Part shown: one piece after another, positions 3,196-15,569 of the stretch
Layout of the letters: the number at the start of each line of letters is the position of its first letter
Position numbering within the stretch: the first letter of the stretch is position 1
Source: a virus
Strand: one strand, 5' to 3'
Length of the DNA stretch: 38,615 bases
UHGV virus genome: UHGV-0210052
Made by a program: the position numbers and the translations under genes
The notes under the pieces: model-generated
What the model saw: the letters and a program-made list of their open reading frames with translations, nothing else
What the model was told of the DNA's origin: nothing
Database searches by the model: none

Positions 3196-3210
3196 CTGCA
3201 GGGGACACCA
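3196..3210 (+). other. attP core: identity to 3-prime end of tRNA-Arg argW
   Basis: CTGCAGGGGACACCA equals T-stem 3-prime half, acceptor 3-prime strand, discriminator and CCA of argW as recalled; flanked by CCCCTGC/GCAGGGG inverted repeat; lies between torI and int. Confidence 0.6.
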
Positions 3211-3326
3211 TTTATCAGTTCGCTCCCATCCGTACCAGTCCGCAAAATCCCCTGAATATCAAGCCTTACGTATATTCACGGTTCGTCATGGTTCGCGTCA
3301 GATCGTTGACAGCCGCACTCCATGAC

Positions 3327-3371
3327 GGGTAAAAAGTGGATAAAATAATTTTACCCACCGGATTTTTACCC
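3327..3371. repeat. GGGTAAAA motif cluster abutting int start codon
   Basis: GGGTAAAAA at 3327-3335 direct; TTTTACCC at 3349-3356 and 3364-3371 inverted; last copy ends 1 nt before int ATG. Confidence 0.45.
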
Positions 3372-4529
3372 ATGCTCACCGTTAAGCAGATTGAAGCAGC
3401 AAAGCCGAAAGAAAAACCATACCGCCTACTCGATGGTAATGGCCTGTACCTTTATGTCCCTGTATCAGGGAAAAAGGTATGGCAGCTTCGCTACAAGATT
3501 GACGGTAAGGAGAAAATCCTGACTGTCGGAAAATATCCGCTTATGACTTTGCAGGAAGCAAGGGATAAGGCATGGACTGCGAGGAAAGACATCTCGGTTG
3601 GCATCGATCCGGTAAAGGCGAAAAAGTCTTCGTCTAGCAACAATTCATTTAGTGCGATTTACAAGGAATGGTACGAGCACAAGAAGCAAGTCTGGTCAGT
3701 AGGCTATGCAACTGAACTTGCCAAAATGTTTGATGACGACATTTTACCCATCATCGGCGGTCTTGAGATTCAGGATATTGAGCCGATGCAACTGCTGGAA
3801 GTAATCCGCAGATTTGAAGATCGCGGTGCAATGGAGCGAGCCAACAAAGCCCGCAGAAGATGCGGCGAGGTTTTTCGTTACGCTATTGTCACTGGTAGGG
3901 CTAAATATAACCCGGCACCTGACCTTGCTGACGCCATGAAGGGATACCGCAAGAAGAACTTCCCGTTTTTACCTGCCGACCAGATCCCGGCATTCAACAA
4001 AGCACTTGCAACATTTTCAGGAAGTATCGTATCGCTCATTGCGACCAAAGTTTTACGCTACACAGCCCTAAGAACGAAAGAGCTTCGTTCCATGCAATGG
4101 AAGAACGTCGATTTTGAAAACAGGATTATCACCATCGACGCCAGTGTGATGAAGGGACGCAAAATTCATGTTGTCCCGATGTCAGACCAGGTGGTTGAAC
4201 TTCTCACTACGCTAAGCTCAATCACTAAACCAGTATCAGAGTTTGTTTTTGCCGGGCGCAACGATAAGAAAAAGCCAATCTGCGAGAACGCGGTATTGCT
4301 TGTGATCAAACAAATCGGCTATGAGGGTCTGGAAAGCGGTCACGGATTCAGGCATGAATTCAGCACGATTATGAACGAGCACGAATGGCCTGCTGACGCT
4401 ATTGAAGTGCAACTTGCACATGCCAACGGCGGATCTGTGCGCGGGATTTACAACCATGCTCAGTATCTAGATAAGCGCAGAGAAATGATGCAGTGGTGGG
4501 CTGACTGGATTGATGAAAAGGTGGAGTGA
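3372..4529 (+). CDS. intS: tyrosine integrase, IntS (CPS-53/KplE1) type, 385 aa
   Basis: From MLTVKQIEAAKPKEK the protein matches K-12 IntS as recalled; C-terminal R...HGFRH...Y catalytic motifs; track GTG 3336 start rejected. Confidence 0.9.
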   Translation: MLTVKQIEAAKPKEKPYRLLDGNGLYLYVPVSGKKVWQLRYKIDGKEKILTVGKYPLMTLQEARDKAWTARKDISVGIDPVKAKKSSSSNNSFSAIYKEWYEHKKQVWSVGYATELAKMFDDDILPIIGGLEIQDIEPMQLLEVIRRFEDRGAMERANKARRRCGEVFRYAIVTGRAKYNPAPDLADAMKGYRKKNFPFLPADQIPAFNKALATFSGSIVSLIATKVLRYTALRTKELRSMQWKNVDFENRIITIDASVMKGRKIHVVPMSDQVVELLTTLSSITKPVSEFVFAGRNDKKKPICENAVLLVIKQIGYEGLESGHGFRHEFSTIMNEHEWPADAIEVQLAHANGGSVRGIYNHAQYLDKRREMMQWWADWIDEKVE

Positions 4530-4713
4530 TCGATCTTAACCACTATCGGATAGTACAAAGCTTTGTGTGCCTCGTTCATGCCTCACATTACCTGGCAATC
4601 ATCAAATTCACCAGAACGTTCATAAATCGTCTTTGTGATCTGCTTCACTGTTAGACGTAATACTTTTTGCAGTTATTTTATAATCATAGAAATGCTCATC
4701 ATGAGCAGTGAGT

Positions 4714-4744
4714 TGGTGATCTGCGCTGGTAGCCCTGCTATAAT
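4714..4744 (+). promoter_or_regulatory. candidate promoter for acyltransferase gene
   Basis: TATAAT at 4739-4744 with TTGGTG at 4714-4719 (19 bp spacer, suboptimal). Confidence 0.3.
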
Positions 4745-4762
4745 CCTTTGAAATTTTATCTC

Positions 4763-5902
4763 ATGGTGTGCATTATGATCTTTGAGGCGCAAAGTCTTTA
4801 TTTATATTTTTTGTCTCTTTTAGCCGTTGTGTTATGTATTACACTATTGACACGATATAACTATTTTTCTCACATCAACTTTGCAAGTAACAGGTATTTC
4901 TTTATAGACGGATTGCGTGGGATAGCTGCGTTCAGCGTTCTTATTAATCACGGCGCTCATACAATTATTACCAATGGAGTTCAGCCCATATTTATAGACT
5001 TCACAAAATACTCCATCACAGGGAATATGGGTAGCTTCGGTGTACAGATTTTCTTTTGCATTACAGGATTTTTGTTCTTTGATAAATTAATAAAAGGAAA
5101 TAATACATTTGACTGGAATAAATTTTATGTTGCTCGGATAAAAAGACTCGTTCCTCTATATATGCTTACTGCGCTTTTGGTGGCAATTTTAGCTATTATA
5201 TTATCCGGCAGTTCAGCAAGGCTTAACTTTGTTGATTTTTCAAGCTTCCTAAATTTTTTTGGGTTTGGATTTTTGGGCACAGAAATCTTCATTGGCTCTT
5301 TTAACGCATCAGGATTAAATGCGGTGATATGGACTCTACCGTATGAATGGAGGTTTTATTTAATTTTCCCTCTATTATCGATTGCCATCGCAAGCAAGAG
5401 ATATGGTATGTTTGCCATTTCCGCAGTAATGTTACTTGCGGCAAGAGACTTTATGACAGAATTTGTTTTGTGGCCATATTTTATAGTTGGCGCCTTAGGT
5501 GCATATATATTCAATAAATCTTATGTTAACATTGATGATAAATATTGGATATTCTCATTCATTTCTTTCATAGCTATTTTTGTTATCTTCTGCTCTTCCG
5601 CAGACAGCTATGGACGAATCAGATTTGCATGCATTTCATTACTATTTATAATGGTACTTATAACTAAACCAAAAATATTTAAAATAAAATCATTAGTTTA
5701 TTTAGGTGAGGCAAGTTATAGTCTTTATTTGCTGCATTTGCCTATCATGGCTATAGTAATGAGAACAATAAATAATTTCTATAACCTATCGAGCATGTCT
5801 ACTGTGAATTACACAATTTTGATAGCCTTTATTGCATCTCTGTGTAGCGTTATTTCCTGTATCTGTTTTAAGAATTTTGAGTGGAGATTCATTAAAAAGT
5901 AA
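4763..5902 (+). CDS. membrane acyltransferase family 3 (OafA/Oac-like), candidate O-antigen acetyltransferase
   Basis: Multi-TM protein with R...FIDGLRGIAAFSVLINHG acyltransferase_3 motif; very AT-rich versus flanks; start uncertain (track TTG 4748, ATG 4763 or 4775). Confidence 0.75.
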   Translation: MVCIMIFEAQSLYLYFLSLLAVVLCITLLTRYNYFSHINFASNRYFFIDGLRGIAAFSVLINHGAHTIITNGVQPIFIDFTKYSITGNMGSFGVQIFFCITGFLFFDKLIKGNNTFDWNKFYVARIKRLVPLYMLTALLVAILAIILSGSSARLNFVDFSSFLNFFGFGFLGTEIFIGSFNASGLNAVIWTLPYEWRFYLIFPLLSIAIASKRYGMFAISAVMLLAARDFMTEFVLWPYFIVGALGAYIFNKSYVNIDDKYWIFSFISFIAIFVIFCSSADSYGRIRFACISLLFIMVLITKPKIFKIKSLVYLGEASYSLYLLHLPIMAIVMRTINNFYNLSSMSTVNYTILIAFIASLCSVISCICFKNFEWRFIKK

Positions 5903-5906
5903 CATT

Positions 5907-5933
5907 GCGGGGCGATGGCCCCGCTTGATTTCC
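5907..5933. terminator. bidirectional terminator between acyltransferase and tailspike
   Basis: GCGGGGC-GATG-GCCCCGC 7 bp GC-rich hairpin with T-rich tracts on both sides. Confidence 0.6.
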
Positions 5934-5934
5934 G

Positions 5935-8133
5935 CTACGCTATATTAAGATTACCATATGTATTGTTTCCAAGACCATACCATGCCCAGTTTGTTCCTGA
6001 TGCAGGAGTACCTGCATTGTGAATCATATCGCCTATATTTATCAGCACTTTCCCAGGGTATGTTGTAGTAGGAGCAGTGTCTATTCCAGCAGACACATCG
6101 GCAAAACGCCAACCACAGGAAACCATATCTGCGTTATCTCTAAATTTCTTAATTGAAAACGTGTATCTGTTTCCTCTATATATCATTCCAGCAAAACTAG
6201 GCCAGTCAATAAGTTGATTTACTGGTGAGTTTAAAGTGTTACTAAACTCATTATTTTCAATAACTGGTTCATCGATACGCACACCCGAAGTTGATACTAG
6301 ATATGTAGAATCAAAGTCGTTGTCAGAAATAATTGGAGCATAACCACCAATTTCACAACCTGTATTGCCATGAACAAAATATGACTTATTCCCTCGGTAT
6401 ATAGATTTTCTCCATGTGGGCATTGTTACTTTTACGGCATCAGTTCTATCAAACTGGTTGTTTTCAATCACAAGTCCATAACAATATGCAGACATCTGAG
6501 TTTCAGCATAATCATTTATGGCATAACCACCGCCTTTAAATGTATTTTTTGTTATTTTAATTCCATTGAATGATGTTGAGTAGTCATTACTACCATTCCA
6601 GATAATTAGAATATGAGATGAAAATGTGCCATCCTCGTTCTGATCCCCAATGCTTATATTGCTATCAATAACAACATTCTGCGCTGCAACACCGTTAGAT
6701 TCACCTCCTATCTCAACGAATATTCCTTGTCCTGTTTTGATGTTATTCGATATAACTGCACCACCAGTCACCCCCCAAGGAGTAATCCTAGACTGAATAC
6801 TTATAGGGCTTATAAAGTGATTTCTTTCTGCAATTAAATATTTTGTTCTTGCTGAGCACGCAAAATCTTCACCAAAAGTATGCCATTTTCTGCCTGTTCT
6901 GTACGTTTGGCAGTCAATCATCTTAGCAATTCCATTAAGATTTTTAGTGAAAAATGTATAATTTGTTACCAAATCAGTCCTTACATTGCTAAGAGTTATA
7001 TCCTCATTTGGTATAGCACCGTCACCATCAGCATCTGCCATTACAAAGATTCTTGCAGCCAATACGTCAATATCATTAATAGATCCACTACTCCCCTCAA
7101 GTGCGAAACCAAACCAATTCTCTTGAGGGGTAAACGTGGTATCTGAAGGTCCAGTTGAAAAATTTGTGCATGACTGGTTTAACTTTATACCATTAAATTT
7201 AAAGTTTTTGCAGTTGAATAAACCAAAGCAAACACGCTCAGCCTCACCATTTCCATCTGTATTTATATTTACATCATTATCTGCGTAAACAAATAAATTA
7301 TTTTTACCATTAATTACAATTGCTGTTTTACGTATAACACCTGCAGAGTCATGATATTGCTGGCTGATTTGGTAATTAAACTTTATCTCACCGGCGCTAA
7401 AACGTATTGCTCTAACACCACCAAATTTTGATATACAAGCGTTAACCGATGCCGTTGAATCATGCACTCCGTTAATATCATGTCCAGCCCAAACTGTATG
7501 TATGCCATCGAGCACACAATTCGAACGGATCCAGCAACCAGAGCCACCACCATCACTCTCACCAGTTCCCGCAAGGAAAGCAGCGAGCTCAGCATACGAA
7601 CCATCCCACGGAACTGTGGGGCTAAATATGGTGATACCGTTGTGCTGAGATTTAGGCATGCTGGCATCCCAGTAAAACTGCCCGCCGCCAAAGTTGGTTC
7701 CTGGTACGTATCCAATTACATTTAATGTGTGATTCCCAGCAGGCTCGCTCATTAAGGTATGGATGTCAGGAACATTCTCCATTCGCTGGCTAAACTGATC
7801 GGGATCATACTTCAGCACATTGGGAAAATAGAACTGCTGCGAACCATACGCATCATATACAGCCATGGAATGGCCTTGCACAGTTACGAACTTGGCAATC
7901 TGTCCGTTATATACCGGATATCCGGCAGCGTTAATGATTATTGGTTGCGAAACAGGAACGTGAGAGCCGTCTTCGTTCTCTATATAAACCTGAATCTGGT
8001 TTTCTGAATTTACGGGGTCAGCGTCAATTTTACCGATATAAATTTTACCATTGGCAACTGCTTTAAAAGAACGCGCCATAGTGAAGAGTTGCGAAGGCAT
8101 GCTTACCACAACATTTGCGGTGATATCTGACAT
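5935..8133 (-). CDS. tailspike protein, P22-like head-binding N-terminus plus distinct receptor-binding domain, 732 aa
   Basis: [37 protein letters not shown] matches P22 gp9 N-terminal domain as recalled; GGAG SD before ATG 8133; track start 8181 rejected. Confidence 0.9.
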
Positions 8134-8254
8134 TTCATTGCTCCAGACGAATGATATGATGCAACCATGATGTGATTGCATACCGAAATGGTACTATTGA
8201 GTATTTATCCAGTAGGTTACGATGCCATTCCACCCAACTGGTGAGGCATCAAGG

Positions 8255-8515
8255 ATGTACAGCAAATACGACGAGGCGCAGTTTCACTTGAGACTTCCGC
8301 ATGAACTCCACGCGAAAATTAAGCAGCGTGCGAAGATGAATAACAGGTCGCTGAACTCAGAGATAATTGCAGCGATTGAAGAATCATTGGCTAAACAAAG
8401 CTCTGCATCTGTTTACATTGACGATGCAGAGCGTATGGCAGAACAACAATCTGATATGGTTAAGAAAATTGTCTTTGATACGCTCAAGGAGCTATATAAA
8501 AAAGACAGCAGCTAA
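8255..8515 (+). CDS. mnt: Mnt-like ribbon-helix-helix repressor, 86 aa
   Basis: FHLRLPHELHAKIKQRAKMNNRSLNSEI and C-terminal VKKIVFDTLKELYKK resemble P22 Mnt as recalled; GAGG SD 8 nt before ATG 8255. Confidence 0.75.
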   Translation: MYSKYDEAQFHLRLPHELHAKIKQRAKMNNRSLNSEIIAAIEESLAKQSSASVYIDDAERMAEQQSDMVKKIVFDTLKELYKKDSS

Positions 8516-8532
8516 CCATCCGTTGCTTTCCG

Positions 8533-10836
8533 TTACTTCTGGTTATCATCACTGTTCATCCAGTACATGATGCCTAGCCTTGATATGGTTTTCTTATCTG
8601 ATTCTGGAAGTGAGTTGTAAAACGAGCGCCAAGCAGAAGAGCGTCTTACAGTTGTATCAACGATGCTTTCTGGTGCTTGTTTTACTGCCAGCCTTGCTGC
8701 TTTCTGGAATTCTGGTGAGCTAATTAGCTTTTCTGCAGATTCAATTGATTCAGCGCCGCCCATCGCCCTGATTTTGCTGGCGACTTTTGCCCCAATTTCT
8801 GACCCAGCAACAGCACCTACTGCACTGAACGGTCCTGACACAGTTGAACCAACCGCAGTGCCAATGCGTTGGGCATGGTTAGCAACAAATTCATTTGCCG
8901 CAGTGACGCGATTAAACCGTTTGACGAACTCGTTTAGTCTTCCTGTAGTTATCTCGTAAGATTTTGCATCTTTGATAGCCTTTGCGACCTTATATACATC
9001 GTTCAGACCTGACATAGTCTCTTTTGGTAAATGTCGGGCAAGATTGCGCATCTGCCCGTTTGCTAACATGTTTTGATACCAGTCAGCAAACCCTGCAGGA
9101 TTAAAATCAGCGCCACGTTTTCCGTTCGAAAGCATATCCCGAAGACCTGTTCCCAGTAGCTCGGTTCTTAGCTTCCTGGACGGCGTGTTTTGCATCAATT
9201 CACGAAATCCTTTGGCATCGCCTTTCGACATTGCCTGTAGTGCTGTAGTTGCTTTGCGAGAAACATCACCGTTCAGCGTTCTGCCAGTTAGATTAATCAT
9301 TTGCTCTTCCATGCTTTTTCGCATCTGAACAAGCCTCTGAGCAACTTCAAAATCACGTAATGCATTTGTCTCTGACAGCGCCGCCTTTTGATCATCGGCG
9401 AGCGAACCGTAAAGCCTCGATAAAGCAGCGCGATCAGCATCTTTATATGGTCCAGAATTCTTATGAAGTGCATCACCAACAAGTCGTCGTTGCTTATTGA
9501 GATTTGCATAAGTTAATGCGCCGTTCTTGCCTGGATTAACTGCCCGAAAGACTCTCTTTTCAATAGGGTCAAGGTTTTTCATCCCGCCAAGATCTTCTGC
9601 CACCTGTTTGAGCATTGACCTTGTTGATGGTGCATCAATTTTTGCACCTGCAGGCATCGCCTTTTCAACATTGCGATAAAGCTGGTCGCTTCGTTTCATC
9701 AGCGCAGACATTCTTCCATTGACCGTATCAATAAACTTGTCGCTCATACCAAGAGCATCTTTTGCACCGGAAACGCGATCAATTATCTCCCCCGCGCCCT
9801 GTGCTAGCTGCCTGATTGCTTCATTTTCCTGCACCTGTAGAGCAGAACCCGCACGGGACTTGATTGCTTGCTCAACTGCCTTGTATTGCTCGTTCCCGGA
9901 AAAGTGTGAAGGGAGTAATGAATCAACATTAAGCCTTTCAGCAGACTCCAGAACTTCAGCCTGAGGATTGATATCTAGTTCATCAAGCGATGAAGCGAGA
10001 TTTGGCCTTTTTTGTGCTGCTACTGTGCGAACGACTTCCTCTGGGTTCCTCGTCGCAGGCGTCATTGGTACACCTTGTGCTACTCTTGCCTCTGCGGCAT
10101 GAACCGCAGGATTTGTTGCTGCAGCGGCATCACCGGAGAATGGTGATGTTTCTGTTGGCGCAGTGGTCGCTCTCTGTGCAGATGTTTTATTGCCACTAAT
10201 TATATTTGATGCACCACGAACACCACGGGTAACGCCATTTATCAGGCCATGCGTAGCAATGTTAAGTCCGGCATTAATAGCGGCATTTTCGGCAAAATCA
10301 CCCCGTTGATTCGCCGCGTCAGCGAGAGAACCAATGACCATGTTTCCAGCTACTCCTGCTCCAGGAACAAGATAACCGCCTATTGACTCTCCAGCTTGCG
10401 CATACGGATCCGTTGGCCGGTTAACTGGTCTATATACTTCATCAAGAATCTTTGGTCCATCAAAACTCTGAGATGCGGCATTAATGAGACTCGCCCCCCC
10501 CTGAAGAACGTCAAAAGGAATATTTACAAATCCTCTTACCGCCTGCTCGGCAATTTGACCTACGCTTTGCCCACCTGTTAGCCATTCTCCTGCACGCTGC
10601 ATAAGTGATTTGTCTTGCTGAATGGTATCAGGAGATTGCCCTACTTCCTGCTGTTCTGTCTGCATTGAAGGCAATGGATAGGCATCATAGAAAGCTTGCT
10701 TAGCCTGCTCTGCATTTTCTCCGGCTTGCGGTGCCACGACTTCATTGAAGTATTGCTCCTGAGCCTGCGCTTTTTGTTCTGGTGCTAACGCCTGATACTG
10801 TGGAGAGGCGATAACATCTTTCCATGCTTTAGCCAT
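8533..10836 (-). CDS. ejection/injection protein, P22 gp16-like position, 767 aa
   Basis: Last gene of the gp7-gp20-gp16 block; Gly/Ala-rich low-complexity segments. Confidence 0.6.
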
Positions 10837-12131
10837 TAATCACCCCATAGTGAAGAAAAGTTACTGCCAGTAGTAGGTTGTTGCGCTGGCGTATTCTGTA
10901 CTGGCTCCTGATAATCAAACTGTTTTTTAACAGTGCTCAACTTGCTTTCAAGCTGATTTCTAATCTTTCCGATAGAGTCACGAAAAGCCTTTTCACTCAT
11001 TTTGGGGCTTAGGGCACCAACCGCATCGGATAATTTTTTACCCTCAGCATCTGAAAGAGCGCCCATACCCTTCAGGGACTGCACCATAGGAAGGAATGTT
11101 TGAGCTTTAAAGGTGTCGAGCCTTGCTTCAAAGTTAGCCGCATCAGAGCCAGGAACTGTCGGAAACGCTGAGCGAATTCCTACTGCTTTTGAAAGGCCGG
11201 GGCTTTGCTCTATCTCGTTGAGAGAATCAAGCGCAGTGCTGAACGTATCAACTGCACCCTGAGCGGCGGCCTGCCTGTCAGCGCGGGCTATGTCAGCCTT
11301 TTGCCGAACATCTGCCTGTTTCTGTTTTAGCTCTTCAAGCTTTAACTGATTGCTTTCTCTGGCTATCTGTCTGTCCAGAGCCTTTTCTTGTAATTCTGCT
11401 CTTTGTATTTCTCGGGAAAGAGCAGCATTCTGTGCGCTGATGTTCTGTCCACGTATCTGGATGTCCTGACCTCGAGCTGTTAGTGCTTCTCCTGCCTGAT
11501 TGCTGCGGATTGTCTCTGCCAGCCTGCCTCGGTCAATTTCACGACCAGCCATCTTGTCCTGAACATTGAAGTAATCAATCGGACCAAGCGCAGCCATCCC
11601 AAGGTGATCAACAAACTCACCAAATCCTGAAGGGTTCTGCTGATACATCTGAGCAACGCTGTTAGGGTCAACACCGACGCGCGCCAGCTCATTGGCGTTG
11701 TTTTGCAGCCATGATTGCATTGCTTCTGGAGACGATGACGCAAGGCGTGCGCCAGCCGCTAAGGTGCCGATAGAATTACGCTGCTCTTCATCAATGAATC
11801 CCATGCCTTTACGAACGGATTCAATCTGGTCTGGATATTGAGTAGCCAACTGACGCAAAGCACCGCGATCACCAGACGCATAAGCATTAGCGTATGCCTG
11901 CTGAAATTCTTTCTGCCGCTGAGCCTGCTTTTCCTGCTGAAACACCCCCGCAATACCTGAAAGGCCTTGCAAAGCAGTCAGCCCAACATTGTTAGCGCCT
12001 GAACGCTCAATATCATTGTTCTGCCTGATAAGCTGAAGCGTATTGCCGATGTCATTTACGCTCGGAGCGTTTGAGTTGACACCACCGATACCAGCCAACA
12101 ATCCGCCATTTGTTCCTTGCCAAGTAGCCAT
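10836..12131 (-). CDS. ejection protein, P22 gp20-like position, 431 aa
   Basis: Synteny; Gln/Ala-rich coiled-coil-like sequence; start overlaps upstream stop. Confidence 0.6.
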
Positions 12132-12140
12132 GATTACCCC

Positions 12141-12836
12141 TTAAAACAACGATCCAAGCAGGCCAAGTCCGCCGCCAATTGCCGCACCTAATCCAGTGCC
12201 AAGTCCGGGAACAATAGAGCCAAGAGCAGCGCCAGTCATAGCCCCTGAAGCTCCACCGCTAATTGCTGTCTGAAGACCTGATGGTTTGTTGGCATTAGCA
12301 GCGGCAAGAGCTGCGCTTTGCTGTGCAATGCTGCTCATGTTGTTGGCGTACGTCTGCCCGGCGTTTGCCTGACCTTGCAGAGCACCAAGCCCAACGTTTG
12401 CCAGATTGTTGTAATTGCTCATCTGGTTTGATAACCACGACTGACCGAGAGTCGGAGCAATCGTAGCCAGTTGATTGCTTGTGGCTGTCGAACCAAGTCC
12501 GCCAGTCGCCTCCGCAGCAGCAAGACTCTGGTAACGCGCCTGACCTGCAAGGTCTTTATACTGCTGAGAGTTGTAATACTGATTAAGTGCCTGCCCCTGA
12601 CCTTCTAAACTGGAAAGATTCTGCAACTGGTTAACATACTGCTCCGCAAGCGGCGTGAACGGAGCAAGGTTTTTCATGATCGTCTGCCACTGCTGATTTT
12701 GCAGGTCTGCGGCATACTTCTGAGCTTCTGCTGCATACTTTGCGCTTTTATCAGAGCTGCCACCTTTCCCGCCTTTTTCAGGGCAATAAGGTTCCTCGCC
12801 GCGCAGTTTTCTGCCCAGCTTAAATGCATATAACAT
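12141..12836 (-). CDS. ejection protein, P22 gp7-like, 231 aa
   Basis: Size and position match gp7; C-terminal Gly-rich hydrophobic tail GLGAAIGGGLGLLGSLF. Confidence 0.6.
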   Translation of the reverse strand: MLYAFKLGRKLRGEEPYCPEKGGKGGSSDKSAKYAAEAQKYAADLQNQQWQTIMKNLAPFTPLAEQYVNQLQNLSSLEGQGQALNQYYNSQQYKDLAGQARYQSLAAAEATGGLGSTATSNQLATIAPTLGQSWLSNQMSNYNNLANVGLGALQGQANAGQTYANNMSSIAQQSAALAAANANKPSGLQTAISGGASGAMTGAALGSIVPGLGTGLGAAIGGGLGLLGSLF

Positions 12837-12838
12837 GG

Positions 12839-13297
12839 CTATCTCCCGTGATTCAGGAAGTCGATTAGTTCTTCGCGTGTGGCGCTGTAAAACGTCACGT
12901 CATCCACGCCTTTGAAGTATTTCTTGATGGTTCCTACACGCTTAAGGCCAATCATTGCGCAGTACATCTGCCCGTGGCGGAATTTGCGTGCAGCGAACGA
13001 TGTGATGCACTGAACGGTGGTGTTAGTCAGAATGTATCGCCAGAACTCCAGCCCGATTTCCTTGCTGAAGCCGCGAATCTCTGGCAGATACATGGCGTGG
13101 CAATCGAATGTCAGCGGCTGAATCTCCTGATAGTAAACAATGCCGCCGAACTGCCCGTGCACGTTCACCTCGAAGTAACGGCATTCAGGCTTGTAGTCGT
13201 ATCCATCACCGTTATTGCTTCCGGCGATAATGTCAGGGTGATTTCCGACTGCTTCGATCAGGTCGATGTTTCGCGTTGGTTTGAACTGAATCATCAC
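12839..13297 (-). CDS. P22 gp14-position protein, 152 aa
   Basis: Synteny between tail needle and gp7-like gene. Confidence 0.5.
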
Positions 13298-14142
13298 TGC
13301 TCCGCGATTATCTTGATGGTTGTGGCAGTAAACGCCGCACCATTTGACTGAATGGTTAACGTGCTGCCATTTGTGGCAAGAAATCCGTCTTTATCCACGC
13401 TGAAGAACGTAGCTAACAGGATGTTGTCGGTTGTTGTCGCCGCATTACGACTGCTAACCAGTGTGTCAGGAACAGAGCCGGAAAAGGTTAGCTGCATTGA
13501 TCTGTTAGCGGTTCCGCTGGGCCACGTCCCGACGATCGACAGCTTGAAGAACAATGTTTTGTTCTCGTTGAACACAACCATCTTGTTGTTAACGGTGTCG
13601 AAGAATGGTGCCAACGTGCCGGATGACGGCGTGAGCGTTTTCAGCAGGCTAACAAGGTTGGTCGGCGCTGTCGGGATGGTTACAGATACGCCAGAGTAAA
13701 CAACCTCTGACTTCTTGCGCGTGGTTGCATACTCCAGAGCATCAATGCGCGTTTCATGGTCTGAAACCTGCGACTCCAGCGACTGAACTCTGGTATCAAG
13801 CGACGCAATATCGCTTTCATTCTGAGCGATTCGCGTTTCATGTTCCTGAAGAGTTGATTCTGCCTGGCTGATTCGCTCCTCATGATTAACAAGCGTTGCT
13901 TCCGCAGCAGAAATTCGCTGCTCATGGTCAGCGAGAATCACATCCTGCTCATCGTTCCTGACTTGTGCATCATAAGCGCCCTGTCCGGCCTCGTTGGCCT
14001 TGTTAGCCACATTACCAACATCAGTGCCCTGTGCGATAACGTAAAGCAGATACGACTGCGAGAAGATATTGCGTGGAAGGACTGATGTATCGAGCCGCGT
14101 AGCCTGGATGATTACCGGCACATTGAGATTCGAATCCGCCAT
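13294..14142 (-). CDS. tail needle protein (gp26-like) with C-terminal knob domain, 282 aa
   Basis: Heptad coiled coil ([26 protein letters not shown]...) followed by ~130 aa globular C-terminus; position after gp10-like gene. Confidence 0.7.
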
Positions 14143-15560
14143 TACTCAATCCTTATCTGGCAGCCTGACAGAGTGACAGGTGACTTCGTGATAACGCGCA
14201 ATTTGAAGCCAACATTTTTCCTGATGCGCCCTACTCGCTTCCACAAAACACGTTTGTCGTAAACGAACGGTTCATTCTGCTCAATCATCTGCTCACGCCC
14301 GTAATTGATGCCGTCAGTGGTTGCAGAGAGAAAAAGGCGGTCAGCATACTGCGCAACGCCAGTTGAAGATTCAACTTCAAGGTCGAAAACTCTGGCGTTA
14401 TCTGCTTTGAAGAGTGGAGTAAACAGCAGGTGTTCCTGTTGCTTGTCGTACTGGCTGCTGATGTCGAATTGCAATTTCCCGGTCACGGACTCCAGCTTAT
14501 CACCGCACGTTATCCGATTGCCTTCGTAAATGAAGTCGATAGCGCGGTACACATCGTCATACAGGCCCGTTTTCAGCACACACCATTGCGGACCATTGGC
14601 GCTTGAAGATGCGTCGTACACGAGAACATGGCGCGGAAGATGGATAATCAGCAGCTCATGCGCATCAAATCGCAGAGACTCCATCACACCATCAGCCAGT
14701 TCATCAGCAGTGTAGGAGCGGAGAATTTTCTCAATGCTCGCGCTGGCGATTGGTGATACCTGACCGGAGCCGATGATGTATACAGACGGAGCACCTGTTG
14801 CCGGATTGCTGATGAACGCATACGAATCAGCAAACGGCGTTTTGCAGTAAGTTCCGGCAATGCCTTTCTGCACCATCAGTGATGGCTGTGCGACATACAA
14901 AGCGGCACCAACGGTGGTTGCCCCAGTCAGGGAAAAATATTCAATCGTCGATGAACCAAAGCAGACGATGAAGTCTCGCCATGTTCCGATGCCGAGGATA
15001 CCGTCCGGCTGCGATTCTGCGCGATATTGTGCGCTGTAGCGGTCAGGATGCGATTCGTCTTCAAGGTCAGTGATAAACCATGAATCAGTACCATCTTTTG
15101 ACCACGCATAACGCCCACGTAAGCGCGTAACGTCACGAACCGAACCTAACTCATACTGCGTGAATCCGCTGTCTGTAGGCCAGTTTGAGACTGTTTTAAC
15201 CGTGCCATCATAGCGATACTCGACCAGTTGACCATTAACGCCTACCGCCTGTGATGTCCGACCATGCGCCATTGATACGCGACCACTTCCGGCAACATCA
15301 CCAACCTCGCTTTCTCCTTTGTACAGTTTGCCACCACACACGCGATAAACAGCACTCTGCGCCATGTTGTACTCGACGCCGCGAGATACACCGTTCACAT
15401 CAGAACGTTTGGCAATGCCCGGGAATGAGCGAAGATATCCGCTGCTGTTAAGGATTTCTTTGGGTGTAGCCAACATATTCACTGGCAGATAGTCGATATA
15501 GTCGGCGTTTCTAAAGTCTTTGCCGACGCCTTTCATGAGCGGAAGTTGCTGAATCGGCAT
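14142..15560 (-). CDS. tail hub protein, P22 gp10-like, 472 aa
   Basis: Size and synteny (P22 gp10 is about this length). Confidence 0.65.
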
Positions 15561-15569
15561 TTATTCACC

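Follow-up and report, generated by a model that had tools for sequence, protein, structure and literature searches.

By altering the O-antigen on which they depend as receptor, temperate phages influence the diversity of serotypes, the epitopes relevant to vaccines and the range of hosts that therapeutic phages can infect. In two characterised cases, Sf6 and BTP1, O-antigen modification blocks the phage's own tailspike (PMC9558356). Here, we analyse the virus genome UHGV-0210052, a stretch of 38,615 nucleotides referred to below as the window, in which a gene for a membrane acyltransferase of the acyltransferase_3 (AT3) family lies between an integrase gene and a tailspike gene. Our reading, to which we assign a probability of roughly 0.78, is that this gene encodes a stand-alone AT3 O-acetyltransferase that is expressed in the lysogen, acetylates the Escherichia coli O6 O-antigen and blocks phages with the lineage of tailspike receptor-binding domain (RBD) encoded next to it, which would amount to superinfection exclusion together with serotype conversion. 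The initial annotation had described it as a candidate O-antigen-modifying lysogenic conversion gene, and comparison with related loci lends that proposal support, as did every computational test applied, through conserved motifs, purifying selection, predicted expression signals, the slot that the gene occupies, its linkage to the RBD, module swaps and O6 hosts.

The likeness to Sf6 is one of backbone and layout. Both phages are P22-like, with integrase genes about 95–97% identical at the DNA level, and both carry an integrase, an acyltransferase gene with its own (in the window, predicted) promoter, a hairpin terminator and a convergent tailspike. The O-antigen O-acetyltransferase of Sf6, Oac (group 6 antigen), is like the window protein a stand-alone AT3 enzyme with R-X10-H and RXXR motifs. 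The two proteins are 22% identical, the window protein being 42 residues longer with an extra N-terminal helix, and their neighbouring RBDs are unrelated: that of Sf6 is an endorhamnosidase for the Shigella flexneri O-antigen, whereas the host antigen of the window is E. coli O6, which is not known to contain rhamnose.

The closest characterised relative is OacB of phage Sf101, responsible for 3/4-O-acetylation of RhaIII, which is 27–30% identical to the window protein over 97% of the length and was the sole protein match in the phage genome collection. Like the window gene, oacB adjoins and converges on a tail protein gene and is of similar length; the published 11-segment topology of OacB agrees with the model of the window protein, and three OacB motifs are conserved in the latter. 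Mutagenesis has defined R47, H58, W71, F98, R116, R119 and S146 as essential in OacB, and five of the seven (R47, H58, F98, R116 and R119) are conserved in the window protein as R48, H59, F101, R121 and R124. The Sf101 system differs from the window in its receptor-binding protein and in the O-antigen of its host. In phiV10, a Uetakevirus of E. coli O157, a lysis cassette, an acyltransferase and a convergent tail spike follow one another as they do in some of the loci described below (L003–L010). The phiV10 genome record notes of its oac gene that it 'acetylates the host O-antigen; functions in superinfection immunity', and phiV10 infection is reported to be prevented by O-acetylation of lipopolysaccharide (LPS) (PMC11854483). 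The phiV10 enzyme has no significant sequence similarity to the window protein (E = 1.8), and its antigen is O157, not O6.

The GtrABC cassettes of temperate phages, P22-like and others, take precisely the slot that the AT3 gene has in the window. They differ from this gene in glucosylating via undecaprenyl-phosphate-glucose (Und-P-Glc), in comprising three genes and in encoding unrelated proteins. The AT3-SGNH acetyltransferases of the OafB and GtrC(BTP1) type share the AT3 domain and its motifs with the window protein (27% identity in the AT3 domain), which, unlike them, has neither an SGNH domain nor the additional linking helix. The window thus has the placement typical of Oac and OacB, a stand-alone AT3 gene beside a tailspike in the int- and attP-proximal slot of a temperate phage. 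The earlier statement that the gene sits where P22-like phages carry O-antigen conversion genes holds, since the gene order is that of Sf6, Sf101 and phiV10 are comparable, and gtrABC takes the same slot elsewhere. A phage O-antigen acetylase beside a tailspike is therefore known; what is modestly new is that an AT3 clade so far uncharacterised (at most 30% identical to OacB) is paired with an O6-associated RBD, that a block of promoter, AT3 gene, terminator and RBD is common to two phage genera, and that one receptor lineage has interchangeable masks.

The AT3 Gene and Its Product

The gene and its predicted signals are as follows.

4775 to 5902, plus strand: AT3-only membrane acyltransferase of 375 amino acids, candidate O6 O-antigen O-acetyltransferase (PF01757, phrog_3333, AT3 motifs)
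4736 to 4744, plus strand: predicted extended -10 promoter element TGcTATAAT (consensus match)
5907 to 5924, both strands: predicted bidirectional intrinsic terminator hairpin (GCGGGGC-GATG-GCCCCGC, 7 G-C pairs)

It is compared below with the following loci, for which the AT3 and RBD identities are given relative to the window sequences.

L003–L007: phiV10-like (lysis cassette, AT3, convergent spike of 811 amino acids), AT3 89%, RBD 96%
L008–L010: phiV10-like, AT3 75%, RBD 90%
L022: P22-like, AT3 70%, RBD 60%
L023: P22-like, AT3 41%, RBD unrelated

Candidate start codons at 4748, 4763 and 4775 all lead to the same end at 5902. The ATG at 4775 is the likelier start, because it is the one used by RefSeq in E. 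coli W and all four close homologues have kept it; the ATG at 4763 has no conserved counterpart in L022.

Membership of the AT3 family is established. Pfam PF01757 (Acyl_transf_3) matches residues 52–370 of the 384-residue open reading frame (ORF) at 114.6 bits (gathering cut-off 31; E = 6.4e-33), and the PHROG match is phrog_3333, 'O-acetyltransferase' (E = 8e-44). The defining motifs of the family are R-X10-H and RXXR, the former lying in the first core transmembrane helix, where it is represented by Arg14 and His25 in OafB (PMC9833829). In the window protein R-X10-H is found as R48-X10-H59 (DGLRGIAAFSVLINH), invariant in alignments of 10 and of 41 sequences, and RXXR, which in the family lies at the cytoplasmic end of transmembrane helix 3 (Arg71/Arg74 of OafB, R73/R76 of Oac and R116/R119 of OacB), as R121-I-K-R124, both arginines being invariant across 41 homologues. 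An OacB-type motif, FFCITGFLFFDK, is likewise invariant in the 41-homologue alignment, as are Y195 and E369.

AT3 proteins are further characterised by a pore-forming core of ten transmembrane helices. The AlphaFold model of the window protein is of high confidence (pLDDT 89.6, pTM 0.89) and all-helical, with 13 helical segments of at least 9 residues, and can be read as about 11 membrane spans, ten plus one N-terminal helix, as in OacB. Comparison of the acyltransferase with PDB sequences gave no match, and there was no solved AT3 structure for superposition. Foldseek returned weak matches to the related proteins GWT1 and HGSNAT only (E = 0.06–0.5), on which alone a structure-based assignment of the substrate is not possible. 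NCBIfam gave no match for the acyltransferase or for the tailspike.

The gene is under purifying selection, with a ratio of nonsynonymous to synonymous divergence (dN/dS) of 0.11 at a dS of 0.53 relative to L003. This result bears directly on the idea that the AT3 gene is a silent or decaying passenger which hitch-hikes with a low-GC RBD and gives the lysogen no phenotype. In favour of that idea, the acyltransferase beside a related tailspike in strain VE-F10 is split by a frameshift and insertion sequences stand beside the gene in L006 and L007. The ORF is nevertheless full-length (375 amino acids) in every close homologue, all catalytic motifs are intact, and the extended -10 element is conserved where its flanks are not, so that we consider a passenger role very improbable.

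The putative promoter element TGcTATAAT is unchanged in the window, L003 and L008 despite diverged upstream sequence, and L022 has TGaTAcAAT in the same place. A GC-rich hairpin was found by eye at the position of the predicted terminator in six of six aligned loci, its sequence differing in L008, L022, E423 and Sf6. Phase variation of the Dam/OxyR type, as in the Salmonella gtr operons, was considered and rejected because the two upstream GATC sites (at about 4637 and 4717) are not conserved: the one near 4637 is missing in L003, and both are missing in L008. Judged from its sequence, the AT3 gene is a moron, because its composition is deviant (33% versus 47–48% GC), it has predicted signals of its own and its presence varies among similar phages. 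Phage genome records that match the integrase and the head-binding part of the tailspike have no match to the region in between.

Linkage of the AT3 Gene to the Receptor-Binding Domain

The gene faces the following elements, the last of which includes it.

5935 to 8133, minus strand: tailspike ORF, convergent with the acyltransferase gene
7795 to 8133, minus strand: P22-type head-binding (particle-attachment) domain, residues 1–113 (PF09008 Head_binding, E = 7e-66)
5935 to 7782, minus strand: receptor-binding part, residues 118–732, right-handed beta-helix
4624 to 7713, no strand: block common to the window and phiV10-like (Uetakevirus-type) prophages, comprising promoter, AT3 gene, terminator and RBD and coinciding with a low-GC island

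The layout of the tailspike is that of P22-like phages (Lederbergvirus), with a head-binding domain at the N-terminus and, after it, a right-handed beta-helix as receptor-binding and probable depolymerase domain. PF09008 is the sole Pfam match in the protein, and among PDB sequences the head-binding domain matches the Sf6 and P22 tailspikes at their N-termini. The description of the acyltransferase as converging on a tailspike with a conserved N-terminal head-binding domain was accordingly borne out by the coordinates and the PF09008 match, whereas the accompanying view that the receptor-binding part is not recognisable did not survive, the RBD being recognisable.

Homology searches with the acyltransferase recovered, besides OacB, homologues of 89%, 75% and 70% identity that face related RBDs, and AT3 identity follows RBD identity across the four loci listed above, P22-like and phiV10-like alike. 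In the phiV10-like loci the N-termini of the tailspikes are unrelated to that of the window, and the C-terminal 615 residues alone are held in common. The comparison across genera is a clean example of a tailspike domain that travels with, and swaps, its cognate receptor-modification gene. The region is also a hotspot for insertion sequences: in some phiV10-like prophages (L006 and L007) a DDE_Tnp_1 element (7202–8477) separates the AT3 gene from the tailspike.

GC content is 33.2% in the AT3 gene, 47.1% in int, 43.1% in the head-binding part of the tailspike and 48.5% in the rest of the window. The RBD (5935–7713) has a GC content of 38.7% and a third-position GC content (GC3) of 28.5%, and the low-GC island, at about 4600–7400, spans both the AT3 gene and the RBD. 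The initial annotation had held the gene to be far more AT-rich than its neighbours, which is correct with respect to int and the backbone (33% versus 47–48%) and fails with respect to the tailspike RBD, which is also low (38.7%). Window and L003 align by blastn over 3090 bp without a break at 94% identity, from 150 bp upstream of the AT3 start codon to tailspike residue 140. Only short chance-level matches were found when repeats flanking the cassette, as marks of transposition or integration, were looked for.

The two halves of this block do not have the same history. The AT3 half is about 88% identical to L003 and the RBD half about 98.9%, and the corresponding dS values are 0.53 (AT3 gene) and 0.03 (RBD), an approximately 18-fold difference that rules out a single recent joint transfer of the two. 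The same difference implies that the pairing has been maintained or re-assembled over time. It may also be taken to favour another explanation, in which the O-antigen is indeed acetylated but the gene is selected because serotype conversion benefits the host, through evasion of immunity or grazers or protection from unrelated O6-specific phages, and the phage's own tailspike might cope with the acetylated antigen or even favour it: if the RBD half was exchanged recently and the AT3 allele is much older, a functional match between them is not required, and the circulation of several modification modules in O6 strains suggests a broader arms race. Against this stand the characterised parallels in Sf6, BTP1 (PMC9558356) and phiV10 (PMC11854483), in which the modification blocks the phage's own tailspike, and the tracking of RBD identity by AT3 identity over four loci. 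We regard selection mainly for host benefit as unlikely.

Distant homologues of the AT3 protein (37–42% identity; L027, L028 and L029, the last at 6001–7179) occur in three further settings. The Pseudomonas homologue (37%) closes an O-antigen-type gene cluster, the Leclercia homologue lies beside an insertion sequence (IS) element, and the homologue on a metagenomic contig lies about 2 kb from a tailspike of the PF18668 type. These settings show the clade moving between prophages and chromosomal O-antigen loci.

The O6 Antigen as Candidate Receptor

Serogroup O6 is common among both uropathogenic and commensal strains of E. coli and is carried by CFT073, 536, ATCC 25922 and W. The argW prophage of E. 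coli W (serotype O6) is 100% identical to the window over positions 4530–7800, and the O6 gene cluster of this strain (PMC3032704) is intact. Among complete E. coli genomes, all of those that match the tailspike beyond its head-binding domain are O6 (12 of 12, the independent strain E423 included); O6 wzx/wzy is present in 154 of 5426 complete genomes (2.8%). Among complete E. coli genomes this RBD is thus restricted to O6 hosts, and its association with them is established.

Kagunavirus siphophages whose isolation hosts were CFT073, 536 and ATCC 25922 carry more distant relatives of the RBD (35–39% identity); of these strains, 536 and ATCC 25922 were confirmed as O6. One of the relatives, the tail fibre of phiEB49, has an RBD 38% identical to that of the window, and experiments show that infection by phiEB49 requires wzy, waaL and the O6 antigen but not the K2 capsule (PMC12488582). 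The receptor-binding part of the window tailspike is probably an O6 O-antigen depolymerase.

Alternative Modules in the Same Slot

In several loci gtrABC, not the AT3 gene, accompanies this RBD or a relative of it, namely in E423 (RBD 98%), in a siphophage-type prophage of Citrobacter freundii (90%) and in P22-like prophages of Salmonella (72% and 42%). There, homology to the window sets in precisely with the stop codon of the tailspike gene, gtrC has the position of the AT3 gene, and GtrC also co-diverges with the RBD. A gene for a 653-residue AT3-SGNH protein, convergent with a related RBD, fills the slot in three further loci, in the O6 E. coli strain 2017-02-2CC, in Salmonella and in C. 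freundii. Altogether an O-antigen modification module directly follows the tailspike in 13 of 13 loci inspected. GtrABC is a system dedicated to O-antigen.

The O6 strains VE-F10 (L024) and 2017-02-2CC (L025) carry P22-like prophage remnants with tailspikes 47–48% identical to that of the window; in VE-F10 the neighbours are gtrBC and the frameshifted acyltransferase, and in 2017-02-2CC the 653-residue AT3-SGNH gene. On the O6 antigen several modification systems are in competition. In E423 (L002) an ISApl1 element (8187–9161) separates the main tailspike ORF from a short fragment annotated as the tailspike start, which suggests an interruption of the tailspike gene close to its 5′ end.

Several observations weigh against O6 acetylation as the function of the gene. 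The RBD of E423 works with gtrABC in place of the AT3 gene, which is therefore not obligatory; the nearest characterised relative, OacB, is a distant one, and two of its essential residues, W71 and S146 in periplasmic loops, have no conserved counterpart in the window protein; the promoter and terminator are predicted from consensus matches; the two halves of the shared block are not equally old; and the literature searched contained no report of an O-acetylated O6 antigen and none on E. coli W LPS chemistry. In addition, enzymes of the AT3 family also act on further glycans, among them WecH on enterobacterial common antigen, MdoC/OpgC on osmoregulated periplasmic glucans, OatA on peptidoglycan and IcaC on PIA (PMC9558356, PMC9833829), and tailspike residues 1–562 match phrog_8280, whose label reads 'tail spike protein with colonic acid degradation activity'.

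The last two points would suit an acyltransferase that modifies another surface or periplasmic glycan (enterobacterial common antigen, the LPS core, colanic acid or osmoregulated periplasmic glucan), in which case the tailspike might target that glycan or the gene might have a purpose independent of the tailspike's receptor, and an identity of at most 30% to any characterised O-antigen acetylase leaves room for such a substrate. The PHROG label is an unverified annotation, though, and much of the score behind it probably comes from the head-binding domain. The slot, moreover, alternates with the O-antigen-dedicated gtrABC beside the same RBD, the RBD is restricted to O6 hosts even though colanic acid and enterobacterial common antigen are made by nearly all E. 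coli, and the related phiEB49 depends on wzy, waaL and the O6 antigen. A glycan other than the O-antigen therefore strikes us as an improbable substrate.

A Proposed Model for Superinfection Exclusion

If the gene does encode an O6 O-acetyltransferase, its action can be envisioned as follows. Transcription in the lysogen would start at its own extended -10 promoter, independently of the late genes of the phage, and would end at the hairpin that the AT3 gene has in common with the oppositely oriented tailspike gene. The acyl group, most likely acetyl from acetyl-CoA, would be taken up at the cytoplasmic face by means of R-X10-H and RXXR, passed through a transmembrane pore of the protein and used on the periplasmic side to esterify a sugar hydroxyl of the O6 O-antigen, prior to ligation of the latter to lipid A-core. 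The beta-helix tailspike of the adjoining gene would then fail to bind or cleave the acetylated O6 chain, such that phages with this RBD, whether on a P22-like, phiV10-like or siphophage chassis, would adsorb poorly to the lysogen and progeny would not be wasted on lysogen debris. What the analysis shows is the family of the protein, its intact motifs, purifying selection, the position of the gene, its linkage to the RBD and the association with O6 hosts; the model adds by inference which acyl donor and which acceptor sugar are used, that the lysogen expresses the gene and that exclusion results.

A wider generalization can be offered more tentatively, and we would put it at slightly less than an even chance: RBD and receptor-masking gene may form a co-selected pair of specificity plus immunity that is kept or repeatedly re-assembled in moving across unrelated temperate phages (Lederbergvirus, Uetakevirus and siphophages), with interchangeable masks for O6 (AT3-only, AT3-SGNH and GtrABC), and the widely used E. 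coli W may display an undescribed, prophage-acetylated O6 subtype that was lost in LY180 and KO11FL. Were O6 acetylated in this manner, the result would be a phage-resistant and serologically distinct O6 subtype, with a bearing on O6 phage cocktails and O6 glycoconjugate vaccines, and E. coli W would differ in surface chemistry from its cured industrial descendants.

In LY180 (L030, NC_022364.1, 2548000–2572000, compared with window positions 3196–8524), an engineered derivative of W, the tRNA-Arg gene argW is followed directly by the csc sucrose genes, a junction which indicates that the prophage was precisely excised. With its cleanly empty argW site LY180 is a natural isogenic control for the W lysogen. 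The strains KO11FL, SL112, HBUT-L and AQ15, which carry the exact W O6 allele and look like members of the W lineage, have kept the O6 cluster and are missing the cassette; KO11FL, too, has an empty argW site.

Phage Context and Neighbouring Regions

The window is a temperate P22-like phage (Lederbergvirus, Sf6/HK620-type), at the start of which two further elements lie upstream of the AT3 gene.

3196 to 3210, plus strand: attP core, the same as the last 15 nt of tRNA-Arg (argW), with CTGCAGGGGACACCA as the tRNA 3′ end
3336 to 4529, plus strand: IntS-type tyrosine integrase, int (Pfam PF00589, PF22022, PF13356)

The attP core and the integrase just downstream of it show the sequence of the window to be in phage (attP) order, in which attP, int (plus), acyltransferase (plus) and convergent tailspike (minus) succeed one another. 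In E. coli W the tRNA-Arg gene lies immediately upstream of intS. The integrases with which int shares 95–97% DNA identity are those of Sf6, HK620 and CUS-3, and the conserved integrase module extends to about 4569. Its last 35 bp (4535–4569), just past the int stop codon and before the cassette junction at 4624, recur with 100% identity in about 95 genomes of E. coli; in strain M18, the sole genome of these inspected, the stretch comes after an intS remnant at argW.

The window can be aligned to the W prophage from 3196 on. Beyond 3196–8524 it is 94% identical or unmatched: 11445–15566 is merely 94% identical, and 8525–10655, which takes in most of the gp16-like gene (8533–10836), has no match in the W stretch compared. 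This divergence outside the segment from int through the AT3 gene and tailspike to mnt makes the window a mosaic sibling of the W prophage rather than a copy, with the conversion and tailspike end in common. Across the whole window no known RNA family reached its gathering score. Between the tailspike and the gp16-like gene, 8222–8515 encodes a 97-residue protein whose Arc-like ribbon-helix-helix and Mnt C-terminal domain mark it as an Mnt-type repressor in an immI-like region.

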